From contig PFXJ01000092.1 of assembly GCA_002791595.1 (NCBI GenBank), positions 17,847 through 81,846 on the forward strand: 64,000 nucleotides of DNA. Reading direction: 5' to 3'. The position numbers and the translations under genes were made by a program. The DNA comes from a candidate division Zixibacteria bacterium CG_4_9_14_3_um_filter_46_8. Its GTDB lineage: Bacteria; Zixibacteria; MSB-5A5; UM-FILTER-46-8. Each line of letters opens with the position of its first letter. The stretch's first letter is position 1. The notes below the pieces were generated by a model. The model saw nothing but the letters and a program-made list of their open reading frames with translations, was not told the DNA's origin and did not search any database. Shown here one piece after another: positions 16,317-24,723 of the stretch.

Positions 16317-19300
16317 TTAGAATTCCGCCCCGAAAGAGAAATAATGTCGTGGTTTTTCGGAGATGCCGTTCCAATCGGTGCGCCAGGCGGCGTCATATTT
16401 AAGGACAAATATCCCCAGATTGGCGCGGGCGCCGAAACCAAATCCGGCTTTCAAATCATTAAGGCGAGTGGTGCCATTGACAGTCTTAACGCCGCGGAAT
16501 CCTTCATCTTCAAACCAGGTCGCTCCCATATCGTAAAACCACACGCCATTCACGTAGGAAATGGTCATCGGCAGAGGGAATTTCATCTTGAAATATTCGA
16601 TAAAAGGATAGCGGAATTCGAGGTTCATCAGGGCGTAATGGTCGCCGGTGGTTTCGTAATAATTGTAGCCGCGAAGCGGGGTAACCAGACTTCCGAAGTA
16701 GATATCGCGGATGCCATAAATATCGTTGCGCTCGGTTTTCCGCCCGATCCAATTGGCAGTTCCGCCCAGAAAGAACTCCTGCGGTGTCTTACCGAAGGAT
16801 GCCCCGCCGGAAAATCTGGTAGCCAGCAGGTATCTGGTGTTGATATTAAGATACTTTCGATAGTCAAATTCCGTTGTTTGGAAATCCAGATTGGAATCAA
16901 ATAATTTATTTATGGACTGACGGTAATGAAGCGCATATCGATGGCCATTAACCGGGCCGGTTATGCCCCAAAGGACGGTGTCATTTATCAATGATAATGA
17001 GGTTTCAAAAGCGCGTTTATCACTATCATCAAATGGCGGGTCATGATATTTCCTGCCGATGGAGAGATGCAAGGCTGACAATTCCAAGCGGGTGAACTTG
17101 GAAAATGGCCAACTGGCGGAAACCACTCCCCCGTAGATACGGTCGCTGAAAAGGCGATCCAGCGGATCGATATAGTAGTTTTGGCTGTGGAACAGCCCAA
17201 TTCCATAGTCAATCCTGTGGGCGGTGTAAAAATAATAAGCTTCGACATTTAGCTGGTCAAGGAAGTTTCCGAGGTTGGTGCTGATAAACAGATTATGATT
17301 TCCGAATATATCCGAAAAAGCAAAAAATGATTGACCAGAAAATCCATAATAGGTGTCGTAGCCAAGGTCTCCGGCAACATAATCCGGGGTGAATTTGAGC
17401 TTATATTTTTTCTTGATGAAATTACCCTCGGAATCTTTATAAACCGGAATGGAATCTTGATTGGCGGAACTCGTGGTCTTAGTGGTATCGGCGATCTCAG
17501 GATATTCAGAGTCGATATGTTCTTTACCCACGGAAAAGACATAATCGCTAAAATCAGGAGTTGATTTCTCGGCGGATTTAACGCTATCAGCAGGGCTTTC
17601 AGCAGGAGGGGGAACCGGCACAAAAATGGATTTGGGGTCCTTGGCCACGAAAGGTGTTGGCGCAAGTCCGTTGCCATCGGTTTCTATCGGCTTGATTTTC
17701 TTCATCAAGAAAATATCGAAACCTGCCTTTTGAAAACCCGAAAATGCAATTTGATCGCCATCGGGCGACCATGCCGGAGAAAAACACCCTGATAAGGCAT
17801 TTGTTATGGGATAGACTTTTCCGTCAGGAAGTTCCTTTATGTAAAGATTATATATCCCATTCCTATCAGACACGAAGCAGAGATGGCCGCCATCGGGCGA
17901 AATCGCCGGATCGGTGTTTATGCCGGTGGTGTCAGTGATAGCGGTAATGGAATGCTCCGGGATGTCCATTTTGAATATATTATAGGTTCCATAGGTAAAA
18001 GCTGTATCGTCCTCTGCTGGATGACTTGGGCGATCCGACGAGAAGATGATACCGCCGCCATCCGCCATAAAATCGGGCTCTTTATCATCATAGAGATCGT
18101 CGGTCAATGCTGTGGCCGTCCCTGTCTTGAAATCTGCCAGATATAAATCGGATTTACCATTTTTCGTAGCTGAAAAGACAATGGAATTTCCGTCGGGAGA
18201 GAAGTCCGGCGATGAGATGCTATCAAATTTGAATTTGAATTTGTCGGAGATTTTCTTCTTGCGGACATTCATGGTCATTAATTTGTCGTAGCCATGGCTC
18301 TTGGATACAAATGCGATATTTTTGCCATCCGAGGACCACGACAGCCCGGATTGATAAGCGTGGAATGACTCGAATTGAGCCGATTGCGCCCCGCGCAAGA
18401 GCCGTTCGATTATGGCCCCATCGATGGTTGAGATAATCAGGATTTCCGGATAGGAGGATCTATCGGAGAAAAAAGCAAGCCTATCACCCGATGGGGCGAA
18501 TTCCGGTTTTTCGTTGTAAAATGAATTGTCTTTTTCGTGATCGGTAAGAGGTTTGGCGATATCTTTTGGCTCGGTGCGGATTGCTATTTCAGGCCAGTAC
18601 TCCTTGCGCATAGCCAGCATCCATTCCTTTTCGAATTCCTCAGTGGTTTTTCCGATGGAGGCTTTCAGGGCCTTATCAATTGTCAGGTGCAGCTTCCCTT
18701 TGGCCAGAACTTCAGTGATTTTCTCCTCGCCATACTTTTCGACCAGATATGCAATTGCCGACTGGCCTTCCTTATAGACCAAAAATCCTCCCGCCCATTC
18801 GAGGGGTGCGAGGTAACCATTTATGGTGGCATCGCGCATATACATATCGGAAAATGTGTCCCAGCCATGACGGGACGAATACTCCGCATATCCTTCAGAA
18901 AACCAAAGGGGAAGACGGAATAGATACTGGCGGGAAATCAGCGAGCTGAGCGTATTGCCGTAAAGCATATCGAAAATCAGGGCGTGAGTAAGCTCGTGAT
19001 GAAGGACATGCCGAAAATCCTCATAAGAACCACTAAAGGGAATGACCACTCGATTCTTGAAGGCCTCAGTAAATCCCCCCACTCCTTCCTCAATCAAACT
19101 GCCTATTACATTGGTTTGTTGAAATTCATTATGGGAGCAATAAACGATAACCGGGACCCTTTTTTTCAGATCGTAATTCAGCTCTTTGCGTATTTTGTCA
19201 TAAGCGTCCTCAAGAACATCGACGGCAAATGTAGCCAATGGTTGGGCGTCGCGGTAGAAATAGACATCGAAATCCTCGCTTTGGATATAATACCAGTCGA

Positions 19301-19418
19301 AGGTTTTATACTGAACCTTGTTCTTCCCGAAATATTGCTGTTCCTGGGAAAAGGCAGAGTCGTATAAGATGATAAGGAACAGGAACAGGAAGATGGCTGA
19401 AAGTCGTTTTGATATCAA
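16317..19418 (-). CDS. Large outer-membrane protein: N-terminal HExxH peptidase-like domain, TolB-like (PD40) beta-propeller repeats, C-terminal beta-barrel
   Basis: Signal peptide present. HELTHALIFD carries the HExxH motif. There are multiple PD40-type repeats (SPDG....F.S.R.G...LY). The C-terminal ~350 aa is rich in alternating aromatic residues and ends ...FSFGAEF, a terminal Phe typical of an OMP beta-signal. Confidence 0.7.
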   Translation of the reverse strand: MISKRLSAIFLFLFLIILYDSAFSQEQQYFGKNKVQYKTFDWYYIQSEDFDVYFYRDAQPLATFAVDVLEDAYDKIRKELNYDLKKRVPVIVYCSHNEFQQTNVIGSLIEEGVGGFTEAFKNRVVIPFSGSYEDFRHVLHHELTHALIFDMLYGNTLSSLISRQYLFRLPLWFSEGYAEYSSRHGWDTFSDMYMRDATINGYLAPLEWAGGFLVYKEGQSAIAYLVEKYGEEKITEVLAKGKLHLTIDKALKASIGKTTEEFEKEWMLAMRKEYWPEIAIRTEPKDIAKPLTDHEKDNSFYNEKPEFAPSGDRLAFFSDRSSYPEILIISTIDGAIIERLLRGAQSAQFESFHAYQSGLSWSSDGKNIAFVSKSHGYDKLMTMNVRKKKISDKFKFKFDSISSPDFSPDGNSIVFSATKNGKSDLYLADFKTGTATALTDDLYDDKEPDFMADGGGIIFSSDRPSHPAEDDTAFTYGTYNIFKMDIPEHSITAITDTTGINTDPAISPDGGHLCFVSDRNGIYNLYIKELPDGKVYPITNALSGCFSPAWSPDGDQIAFSGFQKAGFDIFLMKKIKPIETDGNGLAPTPFVAKDPKSIFVPVPPPAESPADSVKSAEKSTPDFSDYVFSVGKEHIDSEYPEIADTTKTTSSANQDSIPVYKDSEGNFIKKKYKLKFTPDYVAGDLGYDTYYGFSGQSFFAFSDIFGNHNLFISTNLGNFLDQLNVEAYYFYTAHRIDYGIGLFHSQNYYIDPLDRLFSDRIYGGVVSASWPFSKFTRLELSALHLSIGRKYHDPPFDDSDKRAFETSLSLINDTVLWGITGPVNGHRYALHYRQSINKLFDSNLDFQTTEFDYRKYLNINTRYLLATRFSGGASFGKTPQEFFLGGTANWIGRKTERNDIYGIRDIYFGSLVTPLRGYNYYETTGDHYALMNLEFRYPFIEYFKMKFPLPMTISYVNGVWFYDMGATWFEDEGFRGVKTVNGTTRLNDLKAGFGFGARANLGIFVLKYDAAWRTDWNGISEKPRHYFSFGAEF

Positions 19419-19711
19419 ATTTCTACCCTTCTTAATCTAAACAGTTTATGCAAAATAGCGGTTCCATTTGCGTATAGCCGCATGAATTTTACGCCGCTTG
19501 AGCAGATCCGGTTCCGCACCATACAAAGGCGATAGTGCAGGATCTCGGGCTCAATATAGATGCGTAGGCCCCGCTTTTGCAAGAATGATATTGTCGAAAC
19601 TTCTATGAAAAAGGGTATGAAGGTAATCAAGGGTGCGTAACGCATGGGCATCCATTTCGACTTACGGGGTAGAGATTTGAGGGTCGTTGTTGGTATGGAG
19701 CGCGAGAGATA

Positions 19712-22444
19712 TCAGGGATTGCTGCCCAGCAGTTTATCAAGAAAATCCCCACTTCCAATTTCGCTTATCCGGAGCAACCTGACTTTCGAAGCCAGATTAG
19801 ATTCTATATTTGCTGGAGTATATAATTCCTGGTGGGCTTTGGAAAAATCGTCATCCGCGATGACCACATTAAGCAGGATATTCAAATTGGGGGCAATAGT
19901 CGTCAGATTTCTGAATCTATCATTGATGGCTTTGTTGAAGGTGGTTATTGATGTGGCAACTTCGATTGCGGAGAGAATGTTTTGGGAACCTGTTAGAATT
20001 ATCAAATCTATTTCTTTTACCAATCTGAAAACATTAGGGGTAAGACCAACTTCAAAACCGCTCAGCTTCAGGCTCAACTCGTTCAACATTGGGGATTTCC
20101 TTTGTTCAGTTTCTCCGATGTGAACATTGTAACCTCTGCTTTTCGCGGTCTCGGCGATGACCTTAATTATTCCATTATGATCGAGCAGAATGGGGATATC
20201 GATGTCTAAGGCTATCTGATCAGCTATCGCCTGATTTATTTGGCCGGGCGTTTTTGCCCTCGGATTCAAAATATAGAATTCCCGTTTTTGGCCTTTAGTC
20301 TTCAGTTTCTTGCAATATTTGGTCAGCACTTTATCAATTGTGCTCATTTGCGGGCGGTAGGAATTGACTAATTGAGAATATGTCATTACCAGCAATTCAT
20401 CAAGGCTTGCTTTCGTATGTTCCGAAAGATGGCTGAAAATAAGTTGCTGGGCAAGGTTTTCGGCTGGGATGGAATCAAGGAATTTTATTGCCCCTGACGG
20501 CTCAACCATATCTACCATGAACCACTTCTTTTCTTTCTTGTCAAATATAAAGTTCCCACTGGAAAGCAATAGTCGCAGATCAAACTTGGCCAGCCGAGCC
20601 AATAGCCCTTTTTCGGAGAGATATGGCAACAAGCCGGTCATCAGTGTGGTCTCATCTGCGCCGCCGTGATACCTGATTATTTGCTCACATTTTTGCAGGA
20701 GAGATTTCTCTTCATCTGTGGAGAGATGCTCTTTTATCGCCTCTAATTCGATGGTTGACTCGTAGGGCTTGAAAGAGAGAATGAAATCGCCCAACATCGA
20801 GCCGGTTCTTTTCTGGTGAATCGTTTGGGTGTAGTTCTCAATCGGCGGTTGATAAACCATCCCCCGATTCCTGCATTCCTCCAATGATGGAAGCCTGAAA
20901 CCCGCCCTTATTGCGGCGCGGTTCATCGCCATCCACACGCCGATGTCCCGGTTGTGAAAGGTCAATGCCATCCATCCATCTGGTTTGATAACCCGCCGGC
21001 ATTCCTTGAATATTTTGAACAGCATATCTTCATAAAATTTTCTATCTTTCGCTCCATCGAAGCCGGAATGCCGGGTTTCGATGGCTTCATTTTCCTTGGG
21101 CGCTCCATTCTTCAAACCGAGGAATTCCCTGATCCAGACTAGATAGAAGTCAGACAACTCCGCGTATTGGACATTTCCCCCAAATGGTGGGTCGGTGATC
21201 ACCGCGTCAATGGATGCGTCAGGCAGTTTGATCTCGTGGCTTGATTGAGTCAGAATCCAACAAGTGGCTCCGTTATGTATCTCCTCCCAGGGTTTAAGAG
21301 TCCTGGGAAACGAGCAAAAGTCCCCGATCTCCCGTTCTTGCTCGGCTTTGCCGGCTTTGAAGGCGGCAAAACGCTTCCGCATCGGGTCAATCGGAGACGC
21401 TTCCAAGTATGTATAGGGTGGCCAGTATATGTGGCCGGGCCATTCCAAAGGCCTATCGCCCCGCCATGCTTCGCTTCTAATAACCATCTTGTTGACGAAA
21501 CGAATCGAGGCGGAGAAAATATGAATCAACCCTTGTTTTATTGATTCGTCTTTTACATTTTCTCTAATCCATTTCTTTGCTAAGCCCAAGCTTATTCGCT
21601 GTCTTGGCGTGAAGTAGTCGGCAAATTTGAGAAAGCCCTTGTTATAAAGATTGTTCTCCCTAACGGAATTCATATCAGGGAAATCATCCTTCGGTATCAC
21701 CAATTTTTCTTTTTTTATTACGCTTTTTTCTGTCTTTGAAATTGAATTATAGAGCCTAATATCTCCAATTGTTGCCGGCCTAATGCGCCGTTCCTCACAG
21801 TTTTCGCAATTCACCAAAACGGAAAGCATCTTATCCGGAAGCCGTTCGCAATCGTCAGCTTTCAATCGCGCTTTGCATTTCGGATTGGTGCATTCATAAA
21901 CAGCGTTGGGATGTTTTGTCGCATTTCCCAAGACCACCGAGCTCTTGCAGTCAGGGCATTTTATCACATTCGACCATTCGAACCATTCCGCAACAGCCGA
22001 CTTACCGCACTTGGTGCATTTCGCACGAAAAAGAGTCTCAATGTTTTGTTTGCTCCAGTCGAACCATTTTTGGAACGCCTTTTCCACAGCATCGATATCT
22101 ATCGGTGAAGCTTCAACCTGGGTTATCCAGGTCGCCAAAGGATTTAAGTCTATTCCGACCACCCGTCTCCGCAACTTCAAAGCTTCAACCACTGTCACCC
22201 CGCCCCCGCAGAATGGATCCAAAATGATGTCCCCCGGATTGGAATAATGCTCGATCATTTTCGAGAAAACGTTATGTGGCCGTCTGGCATAGTACCGGTG
22301 CATCTTATAAATGGGCGTGTGAGCTTTTGCCAGCACCGGCGCTATGATAGGTCTAAGCGGTTTGCTCTTAAGACCCTCTTTTTGGACCTGCAAATCTATG
22401 GCTTCGTGGACGGTTTTGGCTTGTAAATCAAGTTCCCTATTCAT
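19712..22444 (-). CDS. Zn-ribbon-containing N6-adenine/N4-cytosine DNA methyltransferase (COG1743-like), 910 aa, with a ~400-aa C-terminal extension of unknown function
   Basis: Motif I is ILDPFCGGGVTVVEA (FxGxG), and motif IV, ITDPPFGG (DPPF), lies ~300 aa downstream. Between them are several CxxC pairs (CTKCGK...CPDCK...CTNPKCK...CENCEE). The ATG is 2 nt downstream of the murA stop (TAA-TT-ATG), with a GGCGGAG RBS inside the murA 3' end. I see no nuclease motif and no R or ATPase partner gene on either flank. Confidence 0.8.
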   Translation of the reverse strand: MNRELDLQAKTVHEAIDLQVQKEGLKSKPLRPIIAPVLAKAHTPIYKMHRYYARRPHNVFSKMIEHYSNPGDIILDPFCGGGVTVVEALKLRRRVVGIDLNPLATWITQVEASPIDIDAVEKAFQKWFDWSKQNIETLFRAKCTKCGKSAVAEWFEWSNVIKCPDCKSSVVLGNATKHPNAVYECTNPKCKARLKADDCERLPDKMLSVLVNCENCEERRIRPATIGDIRLYNSISKTEKSVIKKEKLVIPKDDFPDMNSVRENNLYNKGFLKFADYFTPRQRISLGLAKKWIRENVKDESIKQGLIHIFSASIRFVNKMVIRSEAWRGDRPLEWPGHIYWPPYTYLEASPIDPMRKRFAAFKAGKAEQEREIGDFCSFPRTLKPWEEIHNGATCWILTQSSHEIKLPDASIDAVITDPPFGGNVQYAELSDFYLVWIREFLGLKNGAPKENEAIETRHSGFDGAKDRKFYEDMLFKIFKECRRVIKPDGWMALTFHNRDIGVWMAMNRAAIRAGFRLPSLEECRNRGMVYQPPIENYTQTIHQKRTGSMLGDFILSFKPYESTIELEAIKEHLSTDEEKSLLQKCEQIIRYHGGADETTLMTGLLPYLSEKGLLARLAKFDLRLLLSSGNFIFDKKEKKWFMVDMVEPSGAIKFLDSIPAENLAQQLIFSHLSEHTKASLDELLVMTYSQLVNSYRPQMSTIDKVLTKYCKKLKTKGQKREFYILNPRAKTPGQINQAIADQIALDIDIPILLDHNGIIKVIAETAKSRGYNVHIGETEQRKSPMLNELSLKLSGFEVGLTPNVFRLVKEIDLIILTGSQNILSAIEVATSITTFNKAINDRFRNLTTIAPNLNILLNVVIADDDFSKAHQELYTPANIESNLASKVRLLRISEIGSGDFLDKLLGSNP

Positions 22445-22446
22445 AA

Positions 22447-23709
22447 TTACTCCGCCAGCCTTTTAATATCGGCCCCCACCGACTGCAATGCCTCATCGAT
22501 ATTTTCATATCCTCTATCGATATGATAAGCCCGCAGAATCTCGGTGGTTCCTTTCGCTCCCAGCGCCGCCACCACCAGCGCCGCGCCGGCCCGTATATCC
22601 GAAGCCATCACCGATGCTCCGTGCAGATGCTCGACGCCACTGATGACCGCCCGATCCCCCATCACTCTGATATCAGCTCCGAGCCTTTTCAGTTCCATCG
22701 CATGCCCCATTCTGTTCTCAAAGACGGTCTCGACTATATTGCTGACTCCGTCCGACACCGCGCATAATGCCATAAAGCAGGATTGAAGGTCGGTGGGAAA
22801 TCCGGGAAAGGGAAAGGTGGTTATATCGACAGATTTCAATCGATTCTGACAGGAAACCGCCAAGCCATTCTCCATTTGGATTACATCAACTCCCATATCG
22901 CGGAGTTTCATAAGAGGCATCTGCAAATCCGATTCTCGCGCATTCTCAAGGAATAATTCACCGCCGGCAATGGCGACTGCGCAGGCATAAGTGCCGGCGA
23001 CGAGCCGATCCGGCATCGCATCATAGTGGCACCCATAAAGCCGCTCGACACCTTCGATTTCGATGAAAGTGGAACCGGCACCCTGTATGCGGGCGCCCAT
23101 TCTGATGAGGAAATTGGCTAAGTCCACAACCTCCGGATCGCAAGCGGCGTTGACAATGCGGGTGATTCCATTTCCCAAAGCTCCGGCCAGCATTATGTTT
23201 TCGGTGCCGGTATGGCTGGGCCTATCGAAGAATGCTTCGCCGCCACGGATTTTCTCGGCAGTCGCACGAATATACCCCTCCTTATCGGAAACGACTGCTC
23301 CAATCGATTGAAATCCTTTGATATGCAGGTCAACCGGACGCGCCCCAAGGACACATCCTCCGGGCAGAGATACTTCCGCCTGGCCGAATCGTCCCAGTAA
23401 GGGCCCCATCACCAAGAATGAAGCCCTCATTTGTCTGACCAGCTCATACGGGGCGCGGAAGTTGGCGATATTCTTGGCTGATATTATTACTCGATGGGAT
23501 TCACCATCATGATTGACTTCGGCTCCCAGAGTCTTCAAGACTTTGAGCATAGCATCTATGTCCCGGATATTGGGGACATTGTCAATAATGCACTCGCCAT
23601 CAGAAGCCAAAATTGTGCCTGCAAGGATTGGCAAGACCGAATTTTTCGAGCCGCCGATGCCAATGCGACCTGTTAATCTTTTTCCACCATTTATGACTAA
23701 TTTATCCAT
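22447..23709 (-). CDS. murA: UDP-N-acetylglucosamine 1-carboxyvinyltransferase
   Basis: MDKLVINGGKRLTGRIGIGGSKNSVLPILAG and the overall 420 aa length match MurA (EPSP synthase fold). Confidence 0.9.
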   Translation of the reverse strand: MDKLVINGGKRLTGRIGIGGSKNSVLPILAGTILASDGECIIDNVPNIRDIDAMLKVLKTLGAEVNHDGESHRVIISAKNIANFRAPYELVRQMRASFLVMGPLLGRFGQAEVSLPGGCVLGARPVDLHIKGFQSIGAVVSDKEGYIRATAEKIRGGEAFFDRPSHTGTENIMLAGALGNGITRIVNAACDPEVVDLANFLIRMGARIQGAGSTFIEIEGVERLYGCHYDAMPDRLVAGTYACAVAIAGGELFLENARESDLQMPLMKLRDMGVDVIQMENGLAVSCQNRLKSVDITTFPFPGFPTDLQSCFMALCAVSDGVSNIVETVFENRMGHAMELKRLGADIRVMGDRAVISGVEHLHGASVMASDIRAGAALVVAALGAKGTTEILRAYHIDRGYENIDEALQSVGADIKRLAE

Positions 23710-23757: not shown

Positions 23758-24096
23758 TCATTCGTTCTTTTTGCCGATCATATATCCAAAGATGGTCAGC
23801 ACCAGCACTCCGATGCCGGCGGCTCCTCGGTACAAATAGAAGCTATTATATCCGAATCTGAAAATATCATTACCCGCCACAACCAGCAAGACCAAGCTTT
23901 GCAGAAGCAAGATGACGAATAGCACCTTATTGGCGCGAATCGGATCGCCGCCAAATCCAAAAGCGGCGTAAATTGAACCCCAGTTGACTAAGAATATTGG
24001 CAGGATATCTATCCGACCCGAAGCGAACAACTGCGTGATGAGCACCATCAATGCCGCGGCGATACCGGATCCTATAATGTTGAGAATATGAACCAT
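23758..24096 (-). CDS. Hypothetical small integral membrane protein
   Basis: 112 aa with 3-4 predicted TM helices. Start and stop are contiguous with the downstream lipoprotein gene. Confidence 0.5.
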   Translation of the reverse strand: MVHILNIIGSGIAAALMVLITQLFASGRIDILPIFLVNWGSIYAAFGFGGDPIRANKVLFVILLLQSLVLLVVAGNDIFRFGYNSFYLYRGAAGIGVLVLTIFGYMIGKKNE

Positions 24097-24097
24097 A

Positions 24098-24532
24098 TCA
24101 ATAGAGATAAATTATCTTCCATCCATCAGGTGATTTAAGGAGACCTACTTTGGTGTAATTCTGTATGCCGGTATCTTTGCCGATAAAGCTCAATTCCACT
24201 TCCGCTCGATCGTCGGTAATCTTGCCCTTGCCGACAACTATCTGGCTATTCAGGTAATATAACCGCCGATTGCCGCTGTCAATTAAGCTATTGAAAAACT
24301 CCGCCTTGTAATAAATCAGGGAGCGAGACGAGTCTTCCGGCGACATTTCTTCCAAACGGCTCTTTATCATCCCTTCCCAGTTCACCATGGACTCAATTGC
24401 GGTCGAATCGTTGCTGATGATCGCCCCAACGAATTCCTTGACCACATTACGCGGATCATCCCTCCCCGAACAGCTAATTATTAACAATGAGAAGAGGAGA
24501 AATATAACCGGCCAGTATCTTCGCTTATTCAT
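24098..24532 (-). CDS. Hypothetical lipoprotein
   Basis: Lipobox-like signal MNKRRYWPVIFLLFSLLIISCSG. No functional motif. Confidence 0.55.
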   Translation of the reverse strand: MNKRRYWPVIFLLFSLLIISCSGRDDPRNVVKEFVGAIISNDSTAIESMVNWEGMIKSRLEEMSPEDSSRSLIYYKAEFFNSLIDSGNRRLYYLNSQIVVGKGKITDDRAEVELSFIGKDTGIQNYTKVGLLKSPDGWKIIYLY

Positions 24533-24693
24533 TCTTTACGCTCAAGCTAAATATTATCCTATTCTCTCGAACTGTCAAGCGTATTGGGATAATAAATCAA
24601 AAAAACTGCGTTTTTGGGCCTCGAATTTGAGGCGGCCCTTTTGTAGAACGGCTGAATCTTATCCCAGCAAGATTGGCAACGGTCGGTTTAAAT

Positions 24694-24723
24694 AAAAAAC
24701 CACCCCCTTGTCAGAGGGTGGTT
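24694..24723 (-). terminator. Rho-independent terminator after the creatininase / histidine phosphatase gene pair
   Basis: The minus-strand reading is GGATAACCACCCTCTGACAAGGGGGTGGTTTTTT: a GC-rich stem with a U-tract. Confidence 0.6.

Follow-up and report, generated by a model that had tools for sequence, protein, structure and literature searches.

The stretch of DNA analysed here, referred to as the window, is 64,000 nucleotides in length and comes from candidate division Zixibacteria bacterium CG_4_9_14_3_um_filter_46_8 (GenBank assembly GCA_002791595.1, contig PFXJ01000092.1, positions 17,847 to 81,846 of the forward strand). The gene under study is a 910-aa open reading frame (ORF) at positions 19712-22444 on the minus strand. 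It begins with ATG and is predicted to encode a BrxXI/PglXI-type DNA methyltransferase followed by two winged-helix domains and a restriction endonuclease-like (REase-like) domain. The interpretation developed below, to which a probability of roughly 55% is given, is that the product is a stand-alone, single-chain methylase-nuclease resembling Type IIG enzymes, which would travel on host operons and serve in restriction-modification or defence.

Directly upstream, at 22447-23709 on the minus strand, is the host gene murA (UDP-N-acetylglucosamine 1-carboxyvinyltransferase), identified by Pfam and NCBIfam profiles (TIGR01072, 524 bits against a cutoff of 393). Across the junction the sequence is GGCGGAG-TAA-TT-ATG. 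The murA stop occupies 22449-22447 and the methylase ATG 22444-22442, with 2 nucleotides between them. A Shine-Dalgarno-like GGAG element (22450-22453, minus strand) lies within the last murA codons, 5 nucleotides before the ATG, and the methylase gene has no promoter-like gap of its own. This agrees with the first-pass annotation of the locus, which had described the close spacing and the ribosome binding site inside murA. Its proposal of co-transcription and coupling with murA is likewise supported.

Downstream of the methylase stop is a 293-nucleotide spacer (19419-19711, minus strand) with no Rfam match and no strong terminator. It is followed by the gene for a 1033-aa peptidase-MA/TolB-like beta-propeller protein (16317-19418, minus strand; Pfam and NCBIfam matches). 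The flanks hold no partner gene, as had been noted at first reading. Within ±10 kb, Pfam searches and PADLOC on the large flanking ORFs found no ATPase, restriction or other defence gene. The genes BrxA, BrxB/F, BrxC, PglZ, BrxHII, and DUF499 are also absent from that interval, and there is no second copy of the methylase in the window.

The methylase core is split in two. The first part of the Rossmann core (aa 46-112; 22109-22309, minus strand) carries HRYYARRP at residues 49-56, motif I (DPFCGGG) at residues 76-82, and core strands 1 and 2. The second part (aa 395-560; 20765-21262, minus strand) carries motif IV (TDPPFG) at 417-422, TFHN at 495-498, and GSMLGDF at 548-554. Between them is an alpha+beta insert (aa 113-394; 21263-22108, minus strand), a presumed target-recognition domain (TRD) delimited by the secondary structure of the model and aligned with the insert of a methylase from type-3 bacteriophage exclusion (BREX). 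The order DPFCGGG (FxGxG), an insert of about 290 aa, and TDPPFG (DPPF) bears out the alpha-like arrangement proposed at first reading. The Pfam N6_N4_Mtase profile matches in two pieces of permuted order, with aa 49-102 corresponding to profile positions 160-213. An AlphaFold2 (AF2) model of the full protein, built from 114 sequences, has a predicted local distance difference test score (pLDDT) of 88.3 and a predicted template modelling score (pTM) of 0.76. In this model, strands at 73-76 and 94-99 precede the insert at about 113-394, after which strands at 395-399 and 412-417 follow as the core resumes (395-560). A fold search with the full-length protein returned only weak methylase-core matches.

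Four conserved cysteine pairs lie in the insert at aa 143-216 (21797-22018, minus strand). The pairs are C143/C146, C163/C166, C185/C190 (Cx4C), and C213/C216. Each is at least 90% conserved among 114 homologues, and C163, C166, C185, and C190 are invariant in that set. The eight cysteines sit at four beta-knuckles in the AF2 model and are read as two Cys4 zinc ribbons. The zinc-ribbon insert of the first-pass annotation is therefore present, with two predicted ribbons in place of the three or four suggested.

Sequence comparison places the methylase closest to those of type-3 BREX. The best PADLOC match is PglXI, the type-3 BREX methylase (171 bits, aa 93-516). BLASTP against a plasmid-encoded methylase of Halorarius halobius, whose gene adjoins BrxA and PglZ genes, gives a collinear alignment over aa 20-717 with 24% identity (E 6e-46), in which all eight zinc-ribbon cysteines and an MHxYxxxxPH motif are aligned. 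BrxXI proteins are described in sections 26 and 33 of a 2026 BREX survey (PMC12839542) as having a short N-terminal prelude, a Rossmann core split between strands 2 and 3, an alpha+beta TRD insert of about 250 aa with a 4-Cys zinc finger (two fingers in a subset), and three helix-turn-helix-like (HTH-like) domains at the C-terminus. The window protein has the split core with a Cys4-bearing insert and the C-terminal HTH-like or winged-helix domains; it does not have a BREX locus around its gene. The collinear alignment, the PglXI match and the BrxXI-like layout together argue for homology, and on this comparison the first 720 or so residues are assigned as a BrxXI-type N6_N4 methylase. The family as a whole is large and uncharacterised, and by the same sequence evidence it is derived from the type-3 BREX (BrxXI/PglXI) methylase lineage.

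A relationship to the DUF1156-type methylases had been proposed earlier, and it holds at the level of the PglXI/DUF1156 clade, given the PADLOC score and the alignment with the BREX methylase. Membership of DUF1156 itself was ruled out. Pfam DUF1156 (PF06634/IPR009537) does not match the whole protein at E ≤ 0.01 or aa 1-130 at E ≤ 1. NCBIfam NF042963 (DUF1156_antiphage) reaches 57.6 bits against a cutoff of 1000 and covers only the motif IV region at aa 408-517. There are no adjacent DUF499 ATPase or helicase-nuclease genes. The YYARRP stretch once taken as a DUF1156-like signature is covered by the general N6_N4_Mtase profile match and is thus not diagnostic.

The region lacking methylase motifs spans aa 565-910. 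It is about 350 aa in length, somewhat shorter than the extension of about 400 aa first described as having no recognisable motif. Nothing significant was found for the C-terminal domain in Pfam, NCBIfam, or PADLOC; structure modelling does assign domains to the region. Modelled separately (pLDDT 90.5), aa 565-910 form two helix-helix-helix-hairpin units followed by an alpha/beta domain. The two units are predicted winged helices at aa 565-745 (about 576-643 and 660-726; 20210-20752, minus strand). The last domain, about 160 aa in length (aa 753-910; 19715-20188, minus strand), has a PD-(D/E)xK restriction endonuclease fold according to the model.

Residues E780, D813, E828, T835, R843, and N879 of this domain are invariant across 114 sequences of 37-69% identity. 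In the model, D813 just precedes the first strand of the hairpin and E828 lies on its second strand; these are the canonical PD and (D/E)xK acidic positions. A flavodoxin/CheY-like fold was considered for the same domain and rejected. The sheet of that fold is all-parallel, whereas a turn of three residues connects the modelled strands 814-818 and 822-830, which so form an antiparallel hairpin. Weaker support for the nuclease fold comes from Pfam, where the most recurrent sub-threshold match is XhoI (7 of 42 members, best E-value 0.012), and from Foldseek, which lists FokI, Cdn1, Can2, and MUS81 for the C-terminal region, all above E 0.001. A phmmer search with aa 549-910 against 1.84 billion representative sequences returned 88 matches, most of them C-termini of 600-940-aa proteins of the methylase family or short fragments. 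The scarcity of matches and their origin within the family indicate that the C-terminal module is family-specific.

Two groups of relatives differ at the putative active site, which in the window protein spans residues 828-838 (approximately 19931-19963, minus strand) in the clade alignment. The first is the solitary clade, to which the window protein belongs. The second is a distant clade, 35-38% identical to the window protein, found in Planctomycetota, Levyibacteriota, and several archaea, in which a P-loop ATPase gene follows the methylase at 14 loci. The partner-linked proteins have E828-x-E830-(K/R)831 with S838 (13/13). The solitary proteins have A, V, or T at position 830 and no basic residue at 831 (29/29), with K838 present in 25 of 29. 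The basic residue is thus retained at a different position (831 versus 838), and this speaks in favour of an active site that is maintained. The relocation of the lysine looks correlated with loss or gain of the ATPase partner.

The position of the gene next to murA was compared with 80 metagenomic loci carrying the closest murA relatives (41-73% identity; loci are denoted by L and a number). An ortholog of the peptidase gene is present in 25 of the 80. In these it directly follows murA on the same strand, with a gap of 6-418 nucleotides (typically about 20-60). At the closest locus, L084, where murA is 73% identical, the gap is 59 nucleotides. The pairing of murA with the 1033-aa peptidase-MA/TolB-like propeller gene is itself a conserved arrangement in these 25 loci, which fall among L084-L163 (for example, L084:7001-11427). 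None of the 80 loci contains a member of the methylase family, the sole match being weak and short (L146, aa 34-102). Since murA and the peptidase gene are adjacent in relatives, the methylase gene is an insertion. The window carries a lineage-specific addition of about 3 kb inside the murA-peptidase pair, made up of the 2733-nucleotide gene and extra spacer. The same gene order is found on four separate contigs, out of six read with the exact same protein, and an NCBI protein matches the window protein at 100% identity. The GC content of the methylase gene, 0.45, equals that of its flanks, and there is no compositional anomaly.

The reverse comparison gives the same picture. Among 79 loci of the methylase family, murA is nearby in one, the planctomycete locus L032, where it lies 547 nucleotides upstream. 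A functional link to murA was rejected on this synteny, together with the 25 murA-peptidase loci that lack the methylase. The murA association is incidental and without conserved biological meaning. Close abutment on an essential gene may simply be what a selfish insertion leaves behind and need not mean that the two genes are functionally linked.

Database searching for the family gave 1453 matches at E ≤ 0.001, the best of which, about 110, are full-length. Members occur in Zixibacteria, Calditrichota, Ignavibacteria, LCP-89/KSB1, Chloroflexi, Planctomycetota, Armatimonadota, and one phylum of the candidate phyla radiation. Archaeal members occur in Methanosarcinales, Aenigmatarchaeota, and Micrarchaeota. 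The distribution across phyla is patchy. The solitary form is conserved at full length, with 40-69% identity, in dozens of lineages of several phyla.

The neighbouring genes vary by locus, and most of them have housekeeping functions. The closest relatives (57-69% identity) lie in a beta-oxidation cluster with genes for enoyl-CoA hydratase, 3-hydroxyacyl-CoA dehydrogenase, and acyl-CoA dehydrogenase. Other members adjoin a class II aldolase and TrkA, a radical-SAM protein and a lipoamide acyltransferase, or a homocysteine methyltransferase-MTHFR fusion, and Mfd, NuoM, CobO, and Fe-ADH are found as further neighbours. Same-strand junctions are often 10 nucleotides or less on one or both sides. 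Dependence on a host operon, with no promoter of the gene's own, thus appears to be general in the solitary clade and is not peculiar to murA. No BREX genes were seen among the neighbours examined at 41 full-length family loci with flanking genes called.

Two metagenome-assembled genomes (MAGs) contain two divergent full-length copies each. These are L009 and L027 in Ca. Hatepunaea meridiana, and L017 and L033 in a genome labelled Caldilinea aerophila. Two copies per MAG would be expected for restriction-modification-type genes of different specificities. A lineage-conserved locus, as is the case for Dam or CcrM, was not observed: the gene is absent from the 25 related murA-peptidase loci, and its 57-69% relatives are in another context. 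The patchy spread, varied contexts and duplicate copies fit a horizontally moving, defence-type gene better than a lineage-conserved regulator, and the gene is taken to be horizontally acquired.

Two loci of the solitary clade have neighbours that are not housekeeping genes. A 514-aa protein with an ORC-CDC6-like N-terminus is encoded 59 nucleotides upstream of the methylase in a Zixibacteria MAG (L006:4397-5941, plus strand). An XisH-family protein is encoded 9 nucleotides downstream of the methylase at L017:4757-5179 (plus strand).

The proposed single-chain enzyme would work as follows. The zinc-ribbon insert and the winged helices would read a DNA motif, and the DPPF site would place N6-methyladenine on host DNA. 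The sequence (D/N)PP(Y/F) is typical of adenine-N6 methylases and SPP(Y/F) of cytosine-N4 methylases. As in Type IIG/IIL enzymes, foreign DNA that is bound by these recognition elements and lacks the modification would be cut or nicked by the C-terminal domain. Expression would come from read-through and translational coupling to murA, and this coupling may be how a promoterless cassette is both expressed and retained. Among the three roles offered in the first-pass annotation, a single-polypeptide defence enzyme is the best fit.

Several results weigh against this reading. The canonical lysine of ExK is absent, residue 830 being A, V, or T, and K838 (25/29) or K783 may substitute for it. The solitary clade has also lost the second acidic residue, E830, which is kept in the ATPase-linked clade. 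The loss of E830 leaves room for an inactive domain, and the REase-like domain could on this sequence evidence be catalytically dead. The Foldseek search of the PDB gave no match at E ≤ 0.001. A profile search of PDB sequences gave chance-level matches and no solved nuclease. No terminal, direct or inverted repeats flank the insertion. Searches of plasmids, phages and viral contigs turned up no full-length family member. Finally, the alignment is almost gap-free over 910 positions and has no hypervariable recognition region, an uncommon feature among restriction-modification enzymes whose specificities are diverse. Members of the MmeI family also align nearly without gaps and yet have different specificities. 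The near absence of gaps suggests a specificity that is either conserved or subtly varying.

The alternative that survives best is that the protein is a solitary orphan methylase whose REase-like domain is dead and serves only in DNA binding, sensing or dimerisation, the methylase marking the host genome for regulation or as left-over protection. It is a possible explanation, though clearly a less probable one than an active single-chain enzyme. The missing lysine and E830 of the solitary clade are in its favour, as are the location in a constitutive housekeeping operon and the lack of a hypervariable recognition domain. Inactive REase sensor domains are described in BREX-related proteins in sections 27 and 38 of the survey cited above (PMC12839542). 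Against a dead domain, E780, D813, E828, R843, and N879 are invariant and K838 is kept in 25 of 29 proteins, as expected of a maintained active site. Absence from the corresponding locus of relatives and a patchy occurrence also fit poorly with a conserved regulatory role, and two divergent copies are found within single genomes. The earlier proposal of an orphan epigenetic regulator is weakened by this insertion-like distribution.

The gene could instead be the surviving half of a system composed of a methylase and a P-loop ATPase, with or without HEPN, that has lost its effector and persists as neutral cargo or is decaying. This was also raised at first reading, as a two-gene remnant, and it is improbable. 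A clade with an ATPase immediately after the methylase does exist (the 14 distant loci), and a profile search of the six-frame translation of the window found no ATPase homologue at E ≤ 10, with tblastn giving only noise. The window ORF, on the other hand, is intact and has all family-invariant residues. Full-length solitary proteins with 40-69% identity are widespread across phyla, and this conservation points to purifying selection acting on the stand-alone protein. A function tied to murA or the cell wall, or methylation of RNA or protein in place of DNA, has the 2-nucleotide junction with its ribosome binding site inside murA, the arrangement at L032 and weak Pfam matches to RNA and protein methylase families to recommend it, and is very unlikely given that murA is near one of 79 other loci, that relatives have the murA-peptidase pair without a methylase, and that the best matches of the protein are all DNA N6/N4 methylases (MboIIA, DpnA, CcrM, EcoP15I Mod, and PglXI).

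The preferred reading, a single-chain methylase-nuclease, can be set beside known systems. With BrxXI/PglXI and the DUF1156 "BR" methylases the window protein shares the N6_N4 core, an N-terminal prelude with an (H)xYxxRRP-type motif, a Cys4 insert of about 250-300 aa, and C-terminal HTH or winged helices. It differs in having no BREX or DUF499 genes and no DUF1156 N-terminal domain, and in standing alone in a housekeeping operon. Compared with the Halorarius BREX methylase, it has the REase-like domain as an extra C-terminal domain.

In Type IIG, IIL, and IIC enzymes (MmeI, BpuSI, Eco57I), as predicted for the window protein, a single chain unites a methylase with a recognition module and a domain of PD-(D/E)xK fold, and no partner gene is needed. 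Known Type IIG/IIL enzymes begin with an N-terminal nuclease, continue with a gamma-class N6_Mtase (PF02384) and end with a C-terminal TRD. The order in the window protein is instead methylase with internal TRD, winged helices, then nuclease-like domain; its methylase is of the PF01555 type and its catalytic motif is non-canonical. A C-terminal extension matching a known nuclease or ATPase had been named beforehand as the finding that would make this an ordinary Type IIG/IIL enzyme. A REase-like domain is indeed predicted there by the model, which comes close to that case, but the architecture is not the ordinary one. The Type IIS enzymes FokI and N.BspD6I lack a methylase domain, and their likeness is at the level of the fold only. 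Dam and CcrM are also stand-alone N6-adenine-type methylases without a separate restriction gene, and CcrM and MboIIA give weak sequence matches to the core. Dam and CcrM are short, of the beta or alpha class, and vertically inherited, whereas the window protein is 910 aa long, has extra domains, and is absent from the equivalent locus of relatives.

According to section 26 of the BREX survey (PMC12839542), its authors found no homologues of the insert-TRD of BrxXI outside BREX, and a term search of the survey's text gave no mention of a methylase-REase fusion or a solitary form. If the preferred reading is true, BrxXI-type methylase modules also occur beyond multi-gene BREX or BR loci. A one-protein methylase-nuclease would then be present in considerably more than a hundred uncultured lineages of bacteria and archaea and would offer a minimal, experimentally tractable form of BREX-type recognition. 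The family would be a candidate new group of restriction enzymes, accompanied by a second candidate defence system of a methylase-nuclease with an ATPase-HEPN protein.

The ATPase gene of the distant clade is conserved, encodes 564-821 aa, and follows the methylase with gaps of −8 to +2 nucleotides where measured. It is found at L045:8670-11135 (plus strand), L029:8695-10389, and L032:8704-11160, and also at L034, L035, L037, L038, L040, L041, L050, L051, and L065. The protein has an invariant Walker A motif (FGAPGTGKTF) and a Walker B-like motif (FNFVVTEFNDW). The C-terminus of the long forms is FRN(S/G)AAHS, a HEPN-like motif of the Rx4H type. No match was found in Pfam, NCBIfam, PADLOC, or PDB sequences. 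Homologues number at least 1255. Where the source gives a name it is "hypothetical protein", and no precomputed Pfam domain is recorded for any of the 120 listed. The methylase-nuclease and the ATPase-HEPN protein are, from their sequences, a candidate two-gene defence system. The solitary family and this sister clade are both credible candidates for uncharacterised defence systems.

A broader scheme is put forward tentatively, at rather less than even odds. A BREX-related branch of immunity, not described before, would exist in two forms. In one, the BrxXI methylase fused to an active, non-canonical nuclease would act alone and spread as a cassette lacking a promoter into housekeeping operons, in this case that of murA. 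In the other, a D...ExE(K/R) form would act with a P-loop ATPase, often with an RNase tail of HEPN-like type. The different placing of the basic residue, 831 or 838, would mark the passage from an ATPase-controlled to an autonomous nuclease.

Shorter relatives of the methylase end their match at about aa 670 and lack the REase-like tail (L055:323-3229, plus strand; L056, L060, L063, L064, L068, L073, and L079). The shorter methylases are preceded by a protein of about 950 aa with Mrr_cat and ResIII/helicase domains, whose best PADLOC match is a Type IIG restriction enzyme-methyltransferase model (309 bits). In this branch the nuclease is supplied in trans. Other distant short relatives lie in BREX-like loci.

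The neighbourhood in the window consists of genes for a creatininase, a histidine phosphatase, two small ORFs, murA, the peptidase-MA/beta-propeller protein, a protein with a type IX secretion system (T9SS) tail, and a tetratricopeptide repeat (TPR) protein. A strong terminator-like hairpin with an 11-bp stem and a T-run was found by sequence scan at 24698-24723 (minus strand). Downstream of it, at 24551-24578 (minus strand), is a near-consensus promoter-like sequence, TTGACA-N16-TAATAT, found by consensus scan only. The site near 24578 is probably the start of a unit composed of ORF144, ORF112, murA, and the methylase gene.

The two small ORFs immediately precede murA in what appears to be one operon, at 23758-24096 (minus strand, 112 aa) and 24098-24532 (minus strand, 144 aa). 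Neither has a Pfam or NCBIfam match. Both are present on all four contigs shown for the organism, one of which has a 115-aa version of the 144-aa ORF.

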